A DNA stretch of 64,000 nucleotides. It comes from Candidatus Dojkabacteria bacterium (lineage in GTDB: Bacteria > Patescibacteriota > Dojkabacteria > JAHIVN01). Shown piece after piece: positions 24,750 to 34,087 of this stretch. The notes below the pieces were generated by a model. The model saw only the letters and a list, made by a program, of their open reading frames with translations. It searched no databases and was not told the DNA's origin. Within the stretch, counting starts at the first letter, position 1. Each line of letters begins with the position of its first letter. The DNA lies in contig JAFGDO010000032.1 of NCBI GenBank assembly GCA_016932045.1, positions 127,612 through 191,611 on the forward strand. The letters run 5' to 3'. A program made the translations under genes and the position numbers.

Positions 24750-26492
24750 TTACACCTTATGCTTCAAGGCTTCCACAAGTTCATCTCTAAAGAATGGTGT
24801 TCCTACGTATTTTGTCATCTTTGATTTTATCTCAATTCCGGTCTCGGCCCTTATAAGCTGTGCTAGTTGAGCAGAATAATTATTTTCAACTGCAATCAAT
24901 TTATTCTTACCAGCAAGCCTTTTTATAGTTTCATGCTTTACAGGATATACATATGTGTAGTGAAGCATATTTACCTTTGATTTCCCGGCATTTATGTCTT
25001 TAAGAGCGTCAAGAATCGGGCCCTTCTGAGAGCCCCAGCATACAATTGTTGTCCTTGCATTTTTAGGTCCAAGAAGCTTTGGTTCAGGAAGTTCAGACAT
25101 GATGCCCTGAACCTTTCTCATTCTTTTTTCCATCATTTGTTTTCTTGTGAGAAGATCTTCGGTAGAGTATCCCTTTTCATCGTGTTCATCACTATTTGCA
25201 AGGAAAACTCCCCTTTTTGATCCTGGTAGTGATCGCGGAGATATTCCCGAAACTGTAAATTTGTACCGCTTGAAATCTATTTGGCTTGCAAGTTCCTGCC
25301 TGCTTAATATCTGTCCTCTTTGAACTTTTATCTTTGTATCTTTAAACTTCTTCGTTTGATACCAGCTTTCAGATAGGTACTTGTCAAGCAAAATTATTAC
25401 TAAAGTTTGGTATTTTTCAGCTAAGTTAAAGGCTTCGGGTACAAGCGAGAATACCTCATCAATATCTCCTGGTGCTAGTATGATCCTCGGAAATTCTCCA
25501 TGCCCGATTCTTGAGACAAAGGATAGATCTCCCTGTTCAGTCCAAGTAGGAACGCCTGTTGCAGGACCCGGCCGTTGAGAATTAAAAACAACTAATGGCG
25601 TTTCAGTGATCCCTGCAAGTGCTAAACTTTCAGTCATAAGTGCAAGTCCGCCTCCGCTTGTTCCGCATGCTGATCTTGTTCCGGCAAAACTTGCGCCAAT
25701 TGTCATTTGTATGGCAGTTATTTCGTCCTCGGCCTGTTTCACAATTATCCCTGTCTTATCCGTTCTTTGAGCAAGATACTGAAGAATTCCTGTTGAAGGG
25801 GTCATTGGGTAGGCACAATATACTCTACATCCCGAAGCATATACGGAAAGACCGGCAACCTCATTACCAGTACCTATTATTCGATCCTCACTTTCTTTAT
25901 GATCAAGATCAAAAGAAGATATCTCGTGTATCTTTACAGCTGCTCTAACATGATCAAAACCCCCTTTTGTACAAGCAAGATTTGTTTCTATGTTCTTCGC
26001 TTTTTTACCGAATATACTTTTCACCTGGTTTTCTAGGAATTTATATTCAGAGGTAAGTATAGCCCACATTCCACCTATCATAACGGAATTTTCCATTACC
26101 GGAAGACCTTTATTCTTTTTTACAATTTCTTCAAGTGGGAGTTGCACAAGCTGGATTTTCCTATCTTCAAGTGCTTTTTGAACTCTTGGTCTTATTTCAA
26201 ATGTTTTTCCGTATAACAATAGCCCTTTTACGGCAATTTCTTCGTAATGAAGATTTATTGTTTCCTCGTTTAGTGCAACAAGTATATCAACGATTTGATT
26301 TGAAGAATGGATCTTTTCATCTGAAATATCAATCTGGAATGTAGAATGTCCCCCTCGGATTAGTGAAGGGTATTCGCTATAGGAGAACGTCCACCAGCCA
26401 AGGCTCTTTAGAGCTTTTGTAAGTATGTAGCCTGCGGTTTTTACTCCCTGTCCAGCAGCACCACCGATTTTTAATGCAATTGATTGTTTCAT
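24750..26492 (-). CDS. korA: 2-oxoacid:ferredoxin oxidoreductase alpha subunit with N-terminal gamma-type domain
   Basis: IGGAAGQGVKTAG (gamma-domain motif) followed by alpha-subunit core. Start likely ATG at 26492 (MKQSIALK) rather than the ORF-track start 26564. Confidence 0.8.
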   Translation of the reverse strand: MKQSIALKIGGAAGQGVKTAGYILTKALKSLGWWTFSYSEYPSLIRGGHSTFQIDISDEKIHSSNQIVDILVALNEETINLHYEEIAVKGLLLYGKTFEIRPRVQKALEDRKIQLVQLPLEEIVKKNKGLPVMENSVMIGGMWAILTSEYKFLENQVKSIFGKKAKNIETNLACTKGGFDHVRAAVKIHEISSFDLDHKESEDRIIGTGNEVAGLSVYASGCRVYCAYPMTPSTGILQYLAQRTDKTGIIVKQAEDEITAIQMTIGASFAGTRSACGTSGGGLALMTESLALAGITETPLVVFNSQRPGPATGVPTWTEQGDLSFVSRIGHGEFPRIILAPGDIDEVFSLVPEAFNLAEKYQTLVIILLDKYLSESWYQTKKFKDTKIKVQRGQILSRQELASQIDFKRYKFTVSGISPRSLPGSKRGVFLANSDEHDEKGYSTEDLLTRKQMMEKRMRKVQGIMSELPEPKLLGPKNARTTIVCWGSQKGPILDALKDINAGKSKVNMLHYTYVYPVKHETIKRLAGKNKLIAVENNYSAQLAQLIRAETGIEIKSKMTKYVGTPFFRDELVEALKHKV

Positions 26493-26778
26493 GGCAGTTT
26501 TTAAAATGCTTCCTATAGAATAGAGGAAAAGGGGGGAGAGGTCAAGTGGGGAAGCTAGTAGCAAATTGCGAGCAGGATACGGCTGACATATATAAGATAT
26601 TGGATTGAAGATTGATAATTGTAGGTTGGTATATTGTCAGATCGTCGGATGACCTGATATTTGTATTGTTAATTGCTAATTTTAAATTCTTAATTGAATA
26701 ATCGTATCTTAAGATAGTTGCATATATAACTGTGGGTATAGTTTTTTGTTGCTATTTGCTGTAGAATCACTCCTAGTG

Positions 26779-27696
26779 ATGACAATCTCTCAACTACTAC
26801 AAAGAGGTAGTAAAATTTTGAGTAAAAAGTCCCATACCCCTGAGCTTGACTCTGAAGTATTATTAGCTTTTGCCCTTGCTAAGAGCAAATCTTACTTACT
26901 TTCCCACGGAGAACAATCCGTTTCTCCGGCCAAAACCAAAAAGTTTCTCAAACTTATTTCTAAAAGATTAAAGCGTGAACCTATCGCTTATCTTGCGAAT
27001 AAAAAGGAATTCTACGGTTTAGATTTTTATGTGGATCGCGATGTTTTGATTCCAAGGCCCGAGACAGAACAGCTTGTTGATATGGCCTACGATGTTATTG
27101 TTTCTCTATTTAAAAAAGGACAAAAAGAGATCAGAATAATTGATGTCGGGACAGGGTGTGGCAACATTGCAATAGCGTTAATCCACAAGATCATTGAACA
27201 ACGATTGAATAAAAAGGTCGTATTTACAATTTACCTGTCAGATATCTCAGGTAAAGCGCTGGAAATTGCTCGAAAGAATTATAAAAAAATAATAAAGGAT
27301 AAAGATAGCTTTAAGGTGAATTTTGTTAAGAGCGATCTTCTTTCTGGTATGGGATGCTGCTTTGACATTATAGTTTCCAATCCCCCTTATATCCCCAAAA
27401 GGCAGATAGAATATCTTGAACCAAATGTCAGAGATTTTGAACCAAAGGTAGCGCTTGATGGGGGAGTGGGAGGAATAGAAATTATAAAAAAGTTAATATT
27501 CCAGTCGATTGATAGGCTAAAAGAAGGCAGCGTGCTTATATTTGAAATGCATGAAAAGCATCCGAATGAGATAAAGTATTATCTTGAGGAGAATTTTCCT
27601 GAATGGAAAGCTGATTTTCACAAAGATTGCTTTGGCATGTGGAGGTTTGCGAAGGTTAGTAAGCAAAAAATAGCTAACAGTCAAACAGTCGGATAG
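26779..27696 (+). CDS. prmC: release factor glutamine N5-methyltransferase
   Basis: IIDVGTGCGNIAIAL (motif I) and NPPY catalytic motif (VSNPPYI). Start probably ATG 26779; the ORF-track start is TTG 26746. Confidence 0.85.
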   Translation: MTISQLLQRGSKILSKKSHTPELDSEVLLAFALAKSKSYLLSHGEQSVSPAKTKKFLKLISKRLKREPIAYLANKKEFYGLDFYVDRDVLIPRPETEQLVDMAYDVIVSLFKKGQKEIRIIDVGTGCGNIAIALIHKIIEQRLNKKVVFTIYLSDISGKALEIARKNYKKIIKDKDSFKVNFVKSDLLSGMGCCFDIIVSNPPYIPKRQIEYLEPNVRDFEPKVALDGGVGGIEIIKKLIFQSIDRLKEGSVLIFEMHEKHPNEIKYYLEENFPEWKADFHKDCFGMWRFAKVSKQKIANSQTVG

Positions 27697-27782: not shown

Positions 27783-27986
27783 TTATTTATCCCGCTGTGC
27801 TCTTATAAATGTTTCTACTGATCTATCGCACGTTTTTTCAGCTTCTTTCGGGAAAAGACAGCCGGGGATTTCGCCCCTCTGTCTATGGTATTTGATGCAC
27901 TCACAGCATAAGCCTTTTCTTGAGCAGGAGGGATATGTGCAGGTACAGTTTTTCAGGTTTTCTTCTTGAGTACACTGTTCGGCCAT
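27783..27986 (-). CDS. small cysteine-rich protein (9 Cys in 67 aa; probable metal-binding)
   Basis: CTQEENLKNCTCTYPSCSRKGLCCECIKYH…PGC…C. Confidence 0.5.
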   Translation of the reverse strand: MAEQCTQEENLKNCTCTYPSCSRKGLCCECIKYHRQRGEIPGCLFPKEAEKTCDRSVETFIRAQRDK

Positions 27987-28091: not shown

Positions 28092-28655
28092 CTACTCACT
28101 GAATTTTAGAACATTATAAGTTTCAATTTCTAGATTTCCCTTTTGCCAATCATTTATTCCCAGACCTGCCTTTAAACATAGATGAGACAGGAATTCTTGA
28201 GGTGTCTTAAGCTCATCCCATACTTGTGGCAGGAAAGTTGCAGAATATAGATTCTGTCGTAGAATGACTCCTGGTTTTTCTTTTCTGAGTTTTGTTATCA
28301 GGTTATCTGGATTTTTGTATTTAAGCAACTTAGGTTTATCCAGAATTGAAATTTCAATTTTTACCTTTTTGAACTCTTCCTTTGTGAGCTGGGCGAAGCG
28401 AGGGTCATCAAACGCAGCGGAGTAAGTGTTTTCAACTACATCCTTGTAAATTTCTTGAACAGGATATATTTTACCTATACAACCCCGGAGTTTTCCGTTT
28501 ATTGTAAGAGTTACAAATGTTGCTCTGTTTTGCCTTAAGTTTTCAGGGATGTCCGAATCTTTTACAACCAATCCCTTACCAGTTTCAAAAATTTTCTCTA
28601 GGGCCTTTCTTGAAAGGTTAAGAAGGTATTCTTGTTCCTTTTTTGGTAGATCCAT
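28092..28655 (-). CDS. AMMECR1-domain protein (AmmeMemoRadiSam system protein A)
   Basis: ATFVTLTINGKLRGCIGKI conserved Cys motif of AMMECR1. Confidence 0.85.
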   Translation of the reverse strand: MDLPKKEQEYLLNLSRKALEKIFETGKGLVVKDSDIPENLRQNRATFVTLTINGKLRGCIGKIYPVQEIYKDVVENTYSAAFDDPRFAQLTKEEFKKVKIEISILDKPKLLKYKNPDNLITKLRKEKPGVILRQNLYSATFLPQVWDELKTPQEFLSHLCLKAGLGINDWQKGNLEIETYNVLKFSE

Positions 28656-28677
28656 AATAGGAGTGTTATTTAAAGCT

Positions 28678-29466
28678 TTACTTGTGAAATATTATTGATG
28701 CATAGCCAACTACCTTGGTTTTCTCCCCCGAAGTATCCCCAGACGTCCTATAATCAAGAAGTTTGGGTTTCCAGTGGTTTAATTTTGCAAGTTCTATAAG
28801 TATCATTATCCCAGCGGCTCCACATGCCTCCTCCTGATTAATTGTTGATTCAAGGGCTAATATCTTTTTAATTGTTTTTTCATCACACTTCTTTGCCTCC
28901 TTGTAAGATAGGTAATGAGAAAAATCCGAGCTGACTACAAGCAAAGTGTCTTCTTTTATATAGTTGTTAAGAGCCAAAGCTATTTCTTTGTGGCTCGTGA
29001 TCCTTCCTGTATTTAAAGGAGTAATCTCGAAGTCGCAAAGAATCGTTTGTAAAAAAGGTAATTGTACCTCTATACTGTGTTCAAAAGCATGGGCTTCATT
29101 CAATAATTTAAATGTGCTCCCGTCGTTCAGTTCTTTGTATAGAGTAGAGGAGGGAATACTGCCCAGAGGAGTTTGCCAGAGGTCAAAATTTGATAAGGCT
29201 ACGCCTTGAAACATCATTCTATGAGAGGTGCCTATAATAATTATATTTTTAGCTTTTTGTCCCCTAGCTTGAATTATCTTGTATCCATAAGCTGCAATTG
29301 GTCCAGAGTAAGCATACCCGGCATGAGGGGAAATTACTGCTTTGATTTCTTTTACTGGGTCAGAAGGTTTGGCATCTAGTAAGTATTTATTTACCGAGTT
29401 TTTTAGTCCCTGTTCATCCTCGGGATAAAAACTACCGGAAAAAGCAGGAGGGCGGATAGTAGTCAT
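28678..29466 (-). CDS. MEMO1-family protein (AmmeMemoRadiSam system protein B)
   Basis: PAFSGSFYPED…ISPHAGYAYSGP…IIIIGTSH motifs of Memo-like / extradiol-dioxygenase-B-like proteins. Confidence 0.8.
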   Translation of the reverse strand: MTTIRPPAFSGSFYPEDEQGLKNSVNKYLLDAKPSDPVKEIKAVISPHAGYAYSGPIAAYGYKIIQARGQKAKNIIIIGTSHRMMFQGVALSNFDLWQTPLGSIPSSTLYKELNDGSTFKLLNEAHAFEHSIEVQLPFLQTILCDFEITPLNTGRITSHKEIALALNNYIKEDTLLVVSSDFSHYLSYKEAKKCDEKTIKKILALESTINQEEACGAAGIMILIELAKLNHWKPKLLDYRTSGDTSGEKTKVVGYASIIFHK

Positions 29467-29505
29467 TGGTGTTTGCCTTAGATGTTAGTTACAAAGGATG
29501 AATTA

Positions 29506-29994
29506 TTATAACTGTTTTGAGAAGATAAAACTAGGTAGAAGCTTACCTTTTTCGATTTCCCAGTTAGTTTCACCACTGATTTTAAAACCATTCTTTTCCC
29601 AGAAGTGTAGCACTCCCTTTTTAAGGTAGGGGTGTTTTTTATTTACCGGGCAGTATAGATTTTTACAGCTGTACCTTTTTGAGACTGCTATAAGTATATT
29701 TAATAACTTACTTCCGAGTCCTTTGTTTCTATATTCTTTTCTGACTGTAATTATTGAGATATAGCCGAGGTTTCCAGATTCATCATGCGTCTTTGAGATG
29801 TCATGATTATAGGGAGGGAAAGTTTGCTTTTTATGTATCTCCCACCCGAGATAGGCGAGTACGTCTTTCTGCTCTTTTATAATGATCAGCCCATCTTTAA
29901 ATGTATTCTCTAAAGACCTGAGTGTATTGAGATTTACCCCTCCATTCCTAAATGTTTCTTTTTCGATTGTTTCAATCTGCTGAAGGTCATCCAT
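29506..29994 (-). CDS. GNAT family N-acetyltransferase
   Basis: RNKGLGSKLLNILI acetyl-CoA binding segment. Confidence 0.8.
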   Translation of the reverse strand: MDDLQQIETIEKETFRNGGVNLNTLRSLENTFKDGLIIIKEQKDVLAYLGWEIHKKQTFPPYNHDISKTHDESGNLGYISIITVRKEYRNKGLGSKLLNILIAVSKRYSCKNLYCPVNKKHPYLKKGVLHFWEKNGFKISGETNWEIEKGKLLPSFIFSKQL

Positions 29995-30107
29995 TAATAT
30001 ATTTTATAATATTTCTTTGGCATTTTGAAGGCGAATTTATGTTTCGATGTTACTTATTATTATGAAAGCCGTTAAAGAGTTTAATTAAATTATTAGTAAA
30101 TGACATC

Positions 30108-30959
30108 ATGAATAGTGAAAACAAAATCTGTAACCAAGAAGCGGCAGATAAATCTAACCAAGGAGGAGATTCTGATAGCTTTTTCTGCCTTGTTAAACAA
30201 TCTGGTAAAAGACAAGTGGCTTTCTTAGTAGCATTTCTGATAATTTCAGTAGTGTTAGGCGGAGCTGTCTTTGCTTATGGTTATATAAATACTTCGAATA
30301 GTAAGGAGAAGGATAGTGTTGGAAAGAATAATATCACAGAAGACAAAAAGAACTCGGAAAGGAATGGAGATCATAAAGAGGAGGTTAATGAGGATACTAT
30401 CGTAGGACAGGGAGATGTACAGAAATCAAAGACATTTTCAATTACTAAAGAGGAAGCAACTTTTGAATTTGAATATTTCGACTATTATTATGCTTCTGAG
30501 TTTCCATTCGAGGGATCTGAATACTTTCCAGTAGAGATAAATGTAAGGACAACGGAAGAAACGCCTTCGTATGAATCCTCAGATACTGAAACAGTTGCAA
30601 ATGTTTTGATAGTAAAAAAGAGTGAGGCAAGAGAAAATGTGAGTGGGTTTCCGGGAGAATTGACGGAAGAAGAAGGTTTTCTGATGACATATACTGCAAA
30701 TCAGTGTTTTATAGCAAACGGCCCATACGAACACATAATCTTAGATGGAAATGAAGTTGTGAGGATAGAAGAAACGGAAGAGTGTTTTCTGCCATCAGAG
30801 GGGGATGATCCTATATCGCCTCTTAAAACGAACGTCATCGCCTATGGTGTAAGTCTCGATGATGAGTATTTTGGGATAGTCTATAATATTAGCTATGGTA
30901 ACGATATCCTTCGAGATGATATATTGCGGCAAATAGCAGGAAGTATAAGAGTAGTGTGA
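30108..30959 (+). CDS. hypothetical membrane-anchored acidic protein
   Basis: Single TM (VAFLVAFLIISVVLGGAVFAYGY) followed by an acidic extracytoplasmic domain. Confidence 0.55.
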   Translation: MNSENKICNQEAADKSNQGGDSDSFFCLVKQSGKRQVAFLVAFLIISVVLGGAVFAYGYINTSNSKEKDSVGKNNITEDKKNSERNGDHKEEVNEDTIVGQGDVQKSKTFSITKEEATFEFEYFDYYYASEFPFEGSEYFPVEINVRTTEETPSYESSDTETVANVLIVKKSEARENVSGFPGELTEEEGFLMTYTANQCFIANGPYEHIILDGNEVVRIEETEECFLPSEGDDPISPLKTNVIAYGVSLDDEYFGIVYNISYGNDILRDDILRQIAGSIRVV

Positions 30960-31022
30960 TTCAGAGAAGTTTTATAAAAAGGCTACATGGATGTATAATT
31001 CTATGTAGCCTTTTCTATTTCT

Positions 31023-31904
31023 ATGAACAAACACATTATAGATTTCTTCTGGCACAAAGGAAAACCGTATTTGGTGACGAAAGAATTAAATTCTTCTCAC
31101 TATCAGAAAGAACCTCTTGTGGGGTTTAAATTCAATATCAAATTAAAGAAAAAAAGGTTATGCCCAGGGACCTACTCTTTACTTAAATGGCGGTATCAAG
31201 AATGTTCAGAAGGTAAAGATCTTACTGGAACTGGCTATCGCAGATGTAAGGTATGTGAGGATAAAATTGGTTTTAAGAATGCATTTCTATTTAACGGGAA
31301 TATTACGAATAAAGATCTAAGGGAATATCTTGGGCAGGAGCATTTAGTATATCTTGCGCAATTCCCTCCTGACATAATTAAGGTAGGAACTACATCTGTT
31401 CTAAGAAAGTACGATCGCTTATATGAGCAAGATGCTAGAATTTTTGCTTTTATAGCAAGAGCAACTGGGTTTGATATCCAATCGATCGAACGATTTATTT
31501 CCAGGGAACTAAACCTTCGAGAGAGTGTGTCACTCAGGCATAAATTAAAATACTTGGGTTTGGAAACGATGAAAGATAAAGCTTTCAATAACATTAAAGT
31601 GGTTTCTGAACTGGTGAAGAAAAAGCTTAAAGGAACCGAATTTGAAGCGTGGCTTTTAGATGAGGTTGAGCTGGGAGAGCTTGATGCTATTGGAACAGGA
31701 GTAGACCTCTCAAATGTTGAGTTATTAAAAAAATACACGGAAGTAGGGGGAAGAGTTAAAACCGTAAGAGGCAGAGTAGTAATTTTCGAAAATAATTCAG
31801 AGCTTTTTGCAATAGATGGGAAGAAATTGATAGGGGAGGTTATTGAGGAGCCTCAGCAAGATATAGTTTTAAAGGGGAAAAACGAACAAATGGGACTAAT
31901 CTAA
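31023..31904 (+). CDS. hypothetical protein with N-terminal Cys4 zinc-ribbon-like motif
   Basis: CPGT…C…CKVC cluster near the N-terminus; otherwise unrecognised. Confidence 0.5.
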   Translation: MNKHIIDFFWHKGKPYLVTKELNSSHYQKEPLVGFKFNIKLKKKRLCPGTYSLLKWRYQECSEGKDLTGTGYRRCKVCEDKIGFKNAFLFNGNITNKDLREYLGQEHLVYLAQFPPDIIKVGTTSVLRKYDRLYEQDARIFAFIARATGFDIQSIERFISRELNLRESVSLRHKLKYLGLETMKDKAFNNIKVVSELVKKKLKGTEFEAWLLDEVELGELDAIGTGVDLSNVELLKKYTEVGGRVKTVRGRVVIFENNSELFAIDGKKLIGEVIEEPQQDIVLKGKNEQMGLI

Positions 31905-31932
31905 TAAAAAAGAATAGTGGGAGATTAGAAGC

Positions 31933-32991
31933 TTATGCCCATACACCATCTATTCTTCCGGCACACCTGTCACATACACCTCTTTTTAAGGTTTGAAGCT
32001 TGGAAAATCCCCAGTCCCGTTTGATTAAAGTATTATTGCATGCTGGACAGTAGGTGCTCTGAAGATCCTCTCCCCAAATATTCCCGCCATAAACATATTT
32101 CAGACCCACCTCTTTACCGATTTTATAGGCCTCTCTAATCTTCTTTTCAGATGTAGTCATCTTATCCTTCATTTTATAAGCTGGAGAAAAACTTGAAACA
32201 TGCCAGGGTATTGAGGGAGAAACTGATAAAATAAATTCAGCGATTTGTGTAAGTTCTTTCTTCGAGTCGTTTTCACCCGGTATCACAAGGGTTGTGACCT
32301 CTACCCATACACCTTTTTTGTGATAGTATTTTATATTATCCAAAACAGGTTGGAGTCGGGCTTTACATGTTTTTTTATAAAAGTCATCAGAAAAGGATTT
32401 AAGATCAATATTAATGGCATCGAGGTAGGGGGTAATTTTGTCAATTGCATCGTGCGATGCATATCCATTTGATACATAGACATTTCTGATCCCGGCTTTA
32501 CTTGCAAGTATTGCAGTATCGTAGGTATATTCGAAAAATATTGCAGGCTCATTGTATGTATAGGCTATTGAAGGAATCTTTTTTTCTTCGCAAAAGCTTA
32601 CAATTGCTTCAGGGGGTAGATCGTATCCGTACCTAGTAACCTCAAGTTTCAGGTCTTTTAGCCTTTTTTCTTTGGATAGTTTCTTCTTAAATTCTTTTGC
32701 TGCTTGAGATATATCCCAATTCTGACAAAAGCTGCACCCAAAATTGCATCCGATTGTACCTATAGAAAAGACCTTGGTACCGGGAAGAAAGTGGAATAAT
32801 GGTTTTTTTTCTATTGGATCAATATTTGCAGCAACTGCTTTACCATAGACCAAAAGGTAGAGATCTCCGCTTATATTCTGTCGTACTCCGCATATGCCGG
32901 TGTTTCCGTCGCCAATTAAACAAAATTGCTTACAGGCTGTGCATTTAACGAATTTATTTTTCACCTTTTGATATAAAAGTGCTTTTTTCAT
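31933..32991 (-). CDS. AmmeMemoRadiSam system radical SAM enzyme (PFL-activase-like)
   Basis: N-terminal CTACKQFC…GICGV Cys cluster, radical SAM CNFGCSFCQNW (CxxxCxxC). Confidence 0.85.
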   Translation of the reverse strand: MKKALLYQKVKNKFVKCTACKQFCLIGDGNTGICGVRQNISGDLYLLVYGKAVAANIDPIEKKPLFHFLPGTKVFSIGTIGCNFGCSFCQNWDISQAAKEFKKKLSKEKRLKDLKLEVTRYGYDLPPEAIVSFCEEKKIPSIAYTYNEPAIFFEYTYDTAILASKAGIRNVYVSNGYASHDAIDKITPYLDAINIDLKSFSDDFYKKTCKARLQPVLDNIKYYHKKGVWVEVTTLVIPGENDSKKELTQIAEFILSVSPSIPWHVSSFSPAYKMKDKMTTSEKKIREAYKIGKEVGLKYVYGGNIWGEDLQSTYCPACNNTLIKRDWGFSKLQTLKRGVCDRCAGRIDGVWA

Positions 32992-33323
32992 GGACAGAGA
33001 TGTAAAGAACTAGACTTTGGTTTCCAATTATACCTTTTTAAGTCTACCATGTATTTATCTGAAACAGCAATGCCTTCTTTTTCTAGGAGTTCTTTTTGAA
33101 GCTGTTTAGGAGCGTTTGGATTTTTGATACTAATGAAACCTTTTGAGTTTATTACGCGCCACCAGGGAATATCGAGTCCCTCAGGCATGTTGAAAAGTGC
33201 CCATCCGACCTGCCTTGCAGCCCGTGGTTTACCGAGTAAAATGGCGATAAAACCATAGGAGGTTACCTTTCCTTTAGGGATTTTTGAAACTAGATCATAA
33301 ACTTTTAGGTGAAAAGGGGACAC
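32988..33323 (-). CDS. alkyltransferase-like protein (MGMT-family DNA-binding domain lacking the active-site Cys)
   Basis: MGMT fold motifs (VTSYGFIAILLG…ARQVGWAL) but PWWRV in place of the PCHRV active site. GTG start. 4-nt overlap with the radical SAM gene. Confidence 0.7.
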   Translation of the reverse strand: MSPFHLKVYDLVSKIPKGKVTSYGFIAILLGKPRAARQVGWALFNMPEGLDIPWWRVINSKGFISIKNPNAPKQLQKELLEKEGIAVSDKYMVDLKRYNWKPKSSSLHLCP

Positions 33324-33451: not shown

Positions 33452-34087
33452 CTATTTATCTACTTGACCTTCTATGTCATCTTGTACCTTCTCAATGGAT
33501 TGTTCTCCATTTATTTTGATAAGGATTCCCTTGTCTTTGTAATATTTAGTTAAAGGCTCTGTTTCTTTATGATACGTTGCAATTCTCTTTTTTACAGCTT
33601 CTTCTGTCTCGTCTTCTCGCTGTTCTAGCTTTGAGCCGCACTTGTCACAGATGTTGTCGACTTTTGGTTTTGGAGCTGTGTATATGTTGTATATTGTCTG
33701 ACAGGTTTTGTTCGAGCACGTTCTTCTTCCTGTAAGGCGGTTTATCGCTTCTTTGTCGGATATTTCTAATAGCACCACTTTATCTAACTTAAGAAATTCA
33801 TCTAATAATCTAGCTTGGTTTAGGTTTCTGGGGAATCCATCTAAAATTACGCCCTTTTTAGTATCATCTTTTTTTAATCTTTTGCTTACGAGCTTGACGG
33901 TCAGATCATCTGGGACAAAGATACCTTTGTCAATTAAATCCTTTATTTTGCTTCCAACTTCTGTCGTTGGATCGAGACTTCTAAATATATCGCCGCTTGA
34001 CACATGCGGTATCTTAAGTTTTTTAGATAGCAATTTGGCCTGTGTCCCTTTACCGGAACCCTGTACACCAATCATTAGGATGTTCAT
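33452..34087 (-). CDS. adk: adenylate kinase
   Basis: P-loop GVQGSGKGTQA, zinc-lid Cys4 (C…C…CDKC). Confidence 0.9.
   Translation of the reverse strand: MNILMIGVQGSGKGTQAKLLSKKLKIPHVSSGDIFRSLDPTTEVGSKIKDLIDKGIFVPDDLTVKLVSKRLKKDDTKKGVILDGFPRNLNQARLLDEFLKLDKVVLLEISDKEAINRLTGRRTCSNKTCQTIYNIYTAPKPKVDNICDKCGSKLEQREDETEEAVKKRIATYHKETEPLTKYYKDKGILIKINGEQSIEKVQDDIEGQVDK

Follow-up and report, generated by a model that had tools for sequence, protein, structure and literature searches.

Two genes of an AmmeMemoRadiSam system, encoding an AMMECR1 protein (protein A) and a Memo-like protein (protein B), lie side by side in a genome of Candidatus Dojkabacteria (Patescibacteria/CPR). The third gene, for the radical S-adenosylmethionine (rSAM) enzyme, is found 2.5 kb away, behind three other genes. 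Are these three genes substrates or partners of the system, as the initial annotation proposed, or unrelated genes that came to lie between its parts? We addressed this question in a stretch of 64,000 nucleotides (positions 127,612 to 191,611 of contig JAFGDO010000032.1, assembly GCA_016932045.1), here called the window. We conclude, with a probability of about 80%, that the AmmeMemoRadiSam system of the window is complete, intact and canonical and that the genes lying between its parts are most likely passengers without a functional relation to it. Among prokaryotic systems that have human homologues (here MEMO1 and AMMECR1) and no established substrate, AmmeMemoRadiSam is one of the most widespread, so a reliable conserved partner gene would be valuable. 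The useful results of this analysis are negative ones: the split is common, the junction is an indel hot spot, and only A and B are broadly recurrent near the rSAM gene (163 loci).

The three core genes lie within 4.9 kb of each other:

28092..28655, minus strand: AmmeMemoRadiSam protein A (AMMECR1), TIGR04335, with RGCIG at residue 57
28678..29466, minus strand: AmmeMemoRadiSam protein B (Memo), TIGR04336, with PHAG, SH, SSDFSH and ACG motifs
31933..32991, minus strand: AmmeMemoRadiSam rSAM enzyme, TIGR04337

All open reading frames (ORFs) named in the initial annotation were found at the positions it gave, and its identification of a trio split by three genes held. Each core protein scored above the curated NCBIfam cut-off: protein A with 194 bits against TIGR04335 (AmmeMemoSam_A, cut-off 99), Memo with 254 bits against TIGR04336 (AmmeMemoSam_B, cut-off 26) and the rSAM enzyme with 345.8 bits against TIGR04337 (AmmeMemoSam_rS, cut-off 220). 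Protein A also matched Pfam AMMECR1 (E 1.7e-45) and the PDB entry 1ZQ7 (E 4e-25). Memo matched human MEMO1 (7KQ8, E 1.8e-18), with PHAG, SH and SSDFxH aligned; its PHAG, SH, SSDFSH and ACG motifs align with the MEMO1 metal-site residues. The protein identical to the window Memo is named "AmmeMemoRadiSam system protein B" at NCBI. Both this protein and the one with 100% identity to the window DUF2797 (see below) are assigned there to Candidatus Dojkabacteria; an exact-sequence search gave no record for the rSAM protein. The window proteins thus have domains homologous to those of human MEMO1 (3BCZ, 7KQ8) and archaeal AMMECR1 (1ZQ7, 1VAJ), and they keep the metal-site and RGCIG residues. To our knowledge, the eukaryotic MEMO1 and AMMECR1 have no dedicated rSAM partner, unlike the prokaryotic proteins, which work with one.

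The rSAM enzyme carries the cluster motif CNFGCSFC (CX3CX2C) at residue 82, an N-terminal CTAC...C...C and a C-terminal CPAC...CDRC motif. It fell well below the cut-offs for PFLA (TIGR02493, 50.4 bits, cut-off 231.75) and NrdG2 (TIGR02495, 30.9 bits, cut-off 131.15). Judged by these profile scores, it is not a PflA or NrdG activase, a classification that would have spoken against its place in the trio. PflA (PDB 3C8F / 8FO0) is its nearest solved relative, and the two have in common the CX3CX2C motif and a partial TIM-barrel core. Against the PDB chains of the PFL activase, the match reached only E 1e-5, over residues 142-255. Unlike PflA, the window enzyme has the extra N- and C-terminal Cys motifs and no glycyl-radical enzyme nearby. 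Proteins 58-61% identical to it came from metagenome-assembled genomes (MAGs) of Lewinellaceae/Phaeodactylibacter (Bacteroidota), Woesearchaeota, Nanoarchaeota and "Methanosarcinales". The identity to other Dojkabacteria (60-64%) was about the same. This similarity across domains suggests either a very strong constraint on the sequence or inter-domain transfer.

The window trio resembles the described AmmeMemoRadiSam systems (TIGR04335/TIGR04336/TIGR04337) in that all three proteins are full length with their motifs kept, A and B are adjacent (gap of 22 nt), and the orientation rSAM-B-A is canonical. It differs from them in the 2.5 kb between rSAM and B, which hold three unrelated genes, two of them on the opposite strand. 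To see how unusual such a split is, we collected 160 rSAM-anchored loci with 64-40% identity, 80 from species-representative genomes and 80 from metagenomes, a sample weighted by many Acidobacteriaceae loci. In 68 loci the rSAM gene had 3 kb or more on either side; A and B were both found within 10 kb in 28 of them, only B in six, and neither in 34. A split trio is therefore common and unremarkable in itself, and the earlier statement that the trio is usually contiguous was too strong, with neither partner nearby in half of these loci. Where the trio was together, rSAM was usually followed by B and then by A, at distances between a few and ~50 nt; A was displaced by 4.4-4.8 kb in three loci (L020, L107, L108).

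The genes that separate the trio in the window, with one structural element among them, are:

29506..29994, minus strand: GNAT acetyltransferase, Pfam Acetyltransf_1, first gene of a GNAT-B-A unit, 39 nt before B
30108..30959, plus strand: TM283, an acidic single-pass membrane protein without family
30977..31014, plus strand: 15-bp stem-loop between the TM283 stop and the DUF2797 start, with a terminator-like match
31023..31904, plus strand: DUF2797 protein, PF10977, convergent with the rSAM gene, 28 nt apart

None of the ORFs in the 160 distant loci was a homologue of GNAT, TM283, DUF2797 or the alkyltransferase-like protein (ATL) gene that precedes the rSAM gene in the window, as searched by tblastn, blastp and profiles. 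When all ORFs within 6 kb of the rSAM gene in 163 loci were clustered without preselected candidates, the only real genes to recur broadly were those for B (67 loci) and A (51 loci). The remaining large neighbour clusters were antisense shadow ORFs or lineage-specific neighbours.

Among close relatives, the Logan contig L161 reproduced the window's own locus. Three further Dojkabacteria contigs (L162, L163 and L164) were found through DUF2797 and are biased towards carrying it; the protein database holds few DUF2797 relatives of the window type. Four unbiased sister loci (L171-L174) were anchored on Memo (60-64% identity) and are four of the closest relatives on usable contigs. In all four, rSAM, Memo and AMMECR1 were contiguous, in the same flanking block as in the window, and GNAT, TM283 and DUF2797 were absent. 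Across these eight loci, DUF2797 was thus limited to the window, L162, L163 and L164, GNAT was found in two and TM283 in one. In the three DUF2797-bearing contigs the DUF2797 gene adjoins Memo, with 55, 51 and 47% identity to the window protein, respectively. Their gene orders differ: A, NUDIX, NUDIX, Memo and DUF2797 on the other strand in L162; Memo, a 154-aa gene, DUF2797, rSAM, ATL, adk, rhomboid and a 179-aa gene in L163; Memo, GNAT, DUF2797, NUDIX, HIT and rSAM in L164.

Other small genes occupied the slots between or near A, B and rSAM in the relatives. These were CutA1 (L001, 2638-2961), two NUDIX genes (L162, 3920-4907), NUDIX and HIT (L164, 2203-3284), and two genes of no known family, with 81 aa (L172, 3051-3296) and 154 aa (L163, 1299-1763). 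As sister loci have differing small genes, or none, at this position or next to it, the rSAM/Memo junction is an indel hot spot in the lineage. Several of the slot genes belong to nucleotide-hydrolase families, possibly by coincidence.

In neighbour-joining trees of Memo, rSAM and AMMECR1, the DUF2797-bearing loci did not form a clade. The window branched more deeply, and L162 (Memo tree) and L163 (rSAM tree) each grouped with the DUF2797-less L172-L174 with 100% bootstrap support. Because these loci are not monophyletic, DUF2797 at the junction is, by gene content and tree topology, a presence/absence polymorphism with at least two events, the trio being intact throughout. The inserted genes come and go in close relatives while the trio stays intact, and the junction where they sit is an indel hot spot; both argue that they are most likely unrelated passengers. 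This bears directly on the proposal in the initial annotation that they are substrates or partners, which found no backing in the four sisters or the 160 distant loci, their occurrence being patchy even in Dojkabacteria. Its suggested check for recurrence came out mixed. DUF2797 does recur in three other Dojkabacteria contigs and GNAT in one, so it is not strictly the case that the genes recur in no other genome; TM283 recurs in none, and the housekeeping genes next to the trio recur at least as strongly.

Several points weigh against reading the inserted genes as passengers. Support at the backbone of the trees is low (12-46%), and gains and losses can be counted only with uncertainty. Some retention is indicated by DUF2797 itself: although the proteins share only 47-55% identity, the gene keeps one place, divergent from the Memo-side operon, in four genomes. 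The comparison of sisters covers the locus, and a DUF2797 gene may lie elsewhere in the genomes of the DUF2797-less sisters. Further, the biochemical steps of the mechanism that we propose below would extrapolate from family knowledge.

In the mechanism that we propose together with the passenger reading, the ancestral gene order would have been a single co-directional block, interrupted in the window genome by unrelated genes. The 2.5-kb segment divides the trio between two predicted transcription units, one with (adk)-ATL-rSAM and the other with GNAT-Memo-AMMECR1-(DUF6485). The strand layout by itself requires two units. A promoter scan of 27.5-35.2 kb gave 26 sigma-70-like sites, with 23.8 expected from shuffled sequences, and so speaks neither for nor against a promoter of the rSAM gene's own. 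The three proteins would act together in trans, and their separation would be without functional consequence. The PFL-activase-like rSAM enzyme would use its CX3CX2C [4Fe-4S] cluster and S-adenosylmethionine to generate a 5'-deoxyadenosyl radical, which would abstract a hydrogen from the substrate. The substrate may be a partner protein, or else a molecule resembling a nucleotide or an isoprenoid. Memo would contribute its His/His/Asp/His/Cys metal site for a redox step, and AMMECR1 would bind or relay the substrate via the invariant cysteine of RGCIG. Burroughs et al. reportedly linked Memo contexts to nucleotide-base and isoprenoid modification in 2019. The literature that we found on AmmeMemoRadiSam and AMMECR1 consisted of incidental mentions, with no functional or biochemical assignment. 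One article cites Burroughs et al. 2019 for "Memo-Ammecr1 systems" (PMC7159879).

The inserted proteins were characterized further. The GNAT protein scored 36.3 bits against Acetyltransf_1 (cut-off 20.7) and has the acetyl-CoA motif RNKGLG at residue 89. It reached no NCBIfam equivalog (RimI 24.6 bits, cut-off 86.4). Its only homologue among the loci compared (52% identity) was in L164, and L162, L163 and L171-L174 were without it. We considered the 154-aa gene in the GNAT slot of L163 as a diverged GNAT and rejected it (BLASTP E 2.9, no Pfam GNAT match). TM283 has an isoelectric point of 4.32, with 52 acidic and 24 basic residues, and a single transmembrane segment at about residues 37-60. 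It had no match in Pfam, NCBIfam, PADLOC or PHROGs. The sole hmmsearch match was the window's own copy in L161, making TM283 unique to the window genome among the loci examined. The stem-loop behind TM283 had a folding energy of -24 kcal/mol (z -6.4), and none of 200 shuffled sequences folded equally well. Its predicted fold and position indicate that it is probably the TM283 terminator or a regulatory hairpin. The loop contains TATAAT.

The third inserted protein had been described as a Cys4 zinc-ribbon protein. Four invariant cysteines are indeed present (C47, C61, C75 and C78 in the homologue alignment), in a DUF2797 protein of three domains (PF10977, 29.5 bits, Pfam gathering cut-off 25) and not in a simple zinc ribbon. 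All five aligned homologues match PF10977 (best E 3.4e-12). The AlphaFold2 model (pLDDT 83, pTM 0.82) has two beta domains, the N-terminal one with the four cysteines and the C-terminal one, and between them a beta-beta-alpha-beta-alpha domain. This middle domain carries an invariant YLAxF..IIKVGT..R..DRLYEQ block. Its topology and the pattern Y-x10-VG...R...E are compatible with GIY-YIG, and the top Foldseek match, non-significant (E 0.14, TM-score 0.33-0.39), was 1ZG2 (UPF0213), which we take to be a GIY-YIG-family protein. No Pfam GIY-YIG match was found for this domain at E values up to 10. On the basis of the model, the middle domain may be GIY-YIG-like. In the window, the rhomboid gene lies 2.3 kb from DUF2797, and in L169 (1491-4196) a LemA gene and an M48 peptidase gene are found beside DUF2797.

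Could DUF2797, GNAT or both nevertheless be lineage-specific partners or substrates, with DUF2797 modified by the rSAM enzyme, or GNAT acetylating the product? The place of DUF2797 next to the Memo-side operon in four genomes speaks for this, as do the GNAT gene directly upstream of Memo in the window and L164, and the invariant cysteines together with the confident three-domain model of DUF2797. We regard the proposal as quite unlikely, since both genes are absent from all four Memo-anchored sisters with intact trios and from the 160 distant loci, and the GNAT slot holds the non-GNAT 154-aa gene in L163 and is empty in L162. DUF2797 lies on the strand opposite to the trio and is not co-transcribed with any of its genes. 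In other lineages DUF2797 has unrelated neighbours: more distant DUF2797 genes (one from WWE3 with 35% identity, two others with 26-27%) had no A, B or rSAM gene within 10 kb. DUF2797 has been associated with rhomboid and Zn-protease contexts (PMC12804078), which points away from AmmeMemoRadiSam. A different origin for the 2.5-kb block would be a mobile, defence or toxin-antitoxin cassette that landed in the operon. Varying small genes at one junction among sisters are typical of insertion hot spots, and GNAT toxins exist. The block has no integrase or transposase, its GC content equals that of the flanks (0.36-0.37), and flanking direct or inverted repeats were not found beyond short matches at chance level. 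PADLOC gave only a 14-bit DndF match for GNAT, and PHROGs only generic acetyltransferase matches. This explanation is very improbable.

The remaining candidate is the ATL gene, which together with DUF6485 flanks the trio in the lineage. From L171-L174 we derived a lineage block with the order UvrD-type helicase, 175-179-aa protein, rhomboid, adk, ATL, rSAM, Memo, AMMECR1 and DUF6485, followed by PrmC on the other strand and then the alpha- and beta-subunit genes for pyruvate:ferredoxin oxidoreductase (POR). The window keeps this block, with the additional 2.5 kb between rSAM and Memo. A conserved ATL upstream and DUF6485 downstream set the Dojkabacteria lineage apart from AmmeMemoRadiSam loci elsewhere. 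Besides the genes given above, the block in the window consists of:

26746..27696, plus strand: PrmC-like methyltransferase, right-hand syntenic flank (from the Pfam families of the identical L161 gene)
27783..27986, minus strand: DUF6485 small Cys-rich protein, PF20095 with 35.9 bits, downstream of A
32988..33323, minus strand: ATL, MGMT DNA-binding domain only, PWWRV
33452..34087, minus strand: adenylate kinase (adk), TIGR01351 with 222.6 bits, syntenic in L163 and L171-L174
34214..34921, minus strand: rhomboid protease, Pfam Rhomboid with 129 bits, syntenic in L163, L171, L173 and L174
35018..35557, minus strand: 179-aa membrane-anchored protein of no known family, with one hydrophobic segment
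35711..38746, minus strand: UvrD-type helicase with a PD-(D/E)XK nuclease domain, an ORF at the left end of the block

The initial annotation had described the gene before rSAM as an MGMT-fold protein with PWWRV that overlaps rSAM by 4 nt and is followed by adk and a rhomboid protease, and all of this was confirmed. The protein (111 aa) matches PF01035 (DNA_binding_1, 86 bits, residues 3-85) and is without the N-terminal MGMT domain. Its best PDB matches were the Vibrio ATL 2KIF (E 3.7e-25) and S. pombe Atl1 3GVA (E 2.2e-23), compared with ~1e-6 for true MGMTs. PWWRV stands in the position of PCHRV and aligns with PWFRV (2KIF) and PWHRV (3GVA); the acceptor Cys is replaced by Trp, and the motif is invariant among five lineage orthologues. 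By these alignments, the protein is a genuine ATL. Like Atl1 (3GVA), the Vibrio parahaemolyticus ATL (2KIF) and E. coli YbaZ, it is a single MGMT C-terminal domain of ~110 aa with a Cys to Trp exchange, and the residue after the Trp differs between the window protein, Atl1 and the Vibrio ATL. Unlike the genes for those ATLs, the window gene has adk on one side and a radical SAM gene on the other. ATLs bind O6-alkylguanine DNA without repairing it and recruit excision repair.

A working role of the ATL with the trio, in which it would recognize an alkylated or modified base and hand it over to rSAM, Memo and AMMECR1, draws support from the position of the gene. The ATL gene lies between adk and rSAM, directly upstream of the latter, in five of the six lineage loci with a visible junction (window, L163, L172, L173 and L174; coordinates 694-1029 in L172, 6421-6741 in L173 and 4364-4690 in L174). 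In the window, the ATL stop and the rSAM start overlap by 4 nt (ATGA), as read directly in the sequence. With crude gene calls, none of the other same-strand neighbours in the window (39 adjacent pairs in all) overlapped in this way, so co-translation of ATL and rSAM is real in the window genome. The ATL is also the best-conserved protein of the block, with 78-81% identity to L172-L174, compared with 56-66% for adk, rSAM, Memo and AMMECR1. The connection of Memo contexts with nucleotide-base modification that Burroughs et al. reportedly made also speaks for such a role. Against this role, the 4-nt overlap in L163 and L172-L174 is with adk instead of rSAM. The ATL is missing in L171, which has 132 nt between adk and rSAM, as it is in L001 and L032, two other Dojkabacteria loci, and in all 160 loci that were collected through rSAM from other lineages. 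In synteny it does not surpass adk, the rhomboid or the helicase, none of them plausibly tied to the trio. The ATL is therefore a lineage-conserved neighbour, linked to the trio no more tightly than two housekeeping genes, adk and rhomboid, and the handover of a base to the trio is unlikely. The broader idea that the ATL, DUF6485 or both are lineage-specific accessories, linking the trio to nucleic-acid base chemistry, seems to us similarly doubtful. If it were true, the trio would act on damaged or modified bases and the ATL would be a direct handle on the substrate. The lineage-conserved adk-ATL-rSAM-B-A-DUF6485 block is a lead worth keeping, though weak evidence when taken alone.

DUF6485 (67-72 aa) was found after AMMECR1 in six Dojkabacteria loci with 60-83% identity: the window, L001 (3628-3846), L171 (8037-8234), L172 (4388-4600), L173 (9450-9662) and L174 (7117-7279). 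No copy turned up in the other ~165 loci, nor any match outside the Dojkabacteria loci. Its motif is CTCxYPxCxxKGxCCxCIxxHR...PGCLFP, with a conserved Cys pattern. Judged from this pattern, it could be a small metal-binding protein tied to the trio in this lineage, or its position could be mere conserved synteny.

The outer genes of the block were similarly syntenic. Homologues of the 179-aa protein (43-53% identical) were at the same position in L163, L171, L173 and L174, and those of the helicase (68-79% identical) in L171, L173 and L174; the helicase domains were assigned through the Pfam families of the L173 orthologue. PrmC was syntenic in L162 and L171-L173. Throughout the lineage, the POR alpha and beta genes were found 1-3 kb beyond AMMECR1 (in the window, 24750-26564 of the minus strand together with its left-hand neighbour; 11057-13737 in L171, 6823-9428 in L172). 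A POR alpha homologue was also found 2.4-3.4 kb downstream of rSAM in the metagenome loci L101, L102 and L106. POR could supply the rSAM enzyme with reduced ferredoxin, or simply be a syntenic neighbour. A gene of the baeRF family (eRF1-like) and one for a YibE_F membrane protein flank POR (L161, 70-519; L172, 10723-10998).

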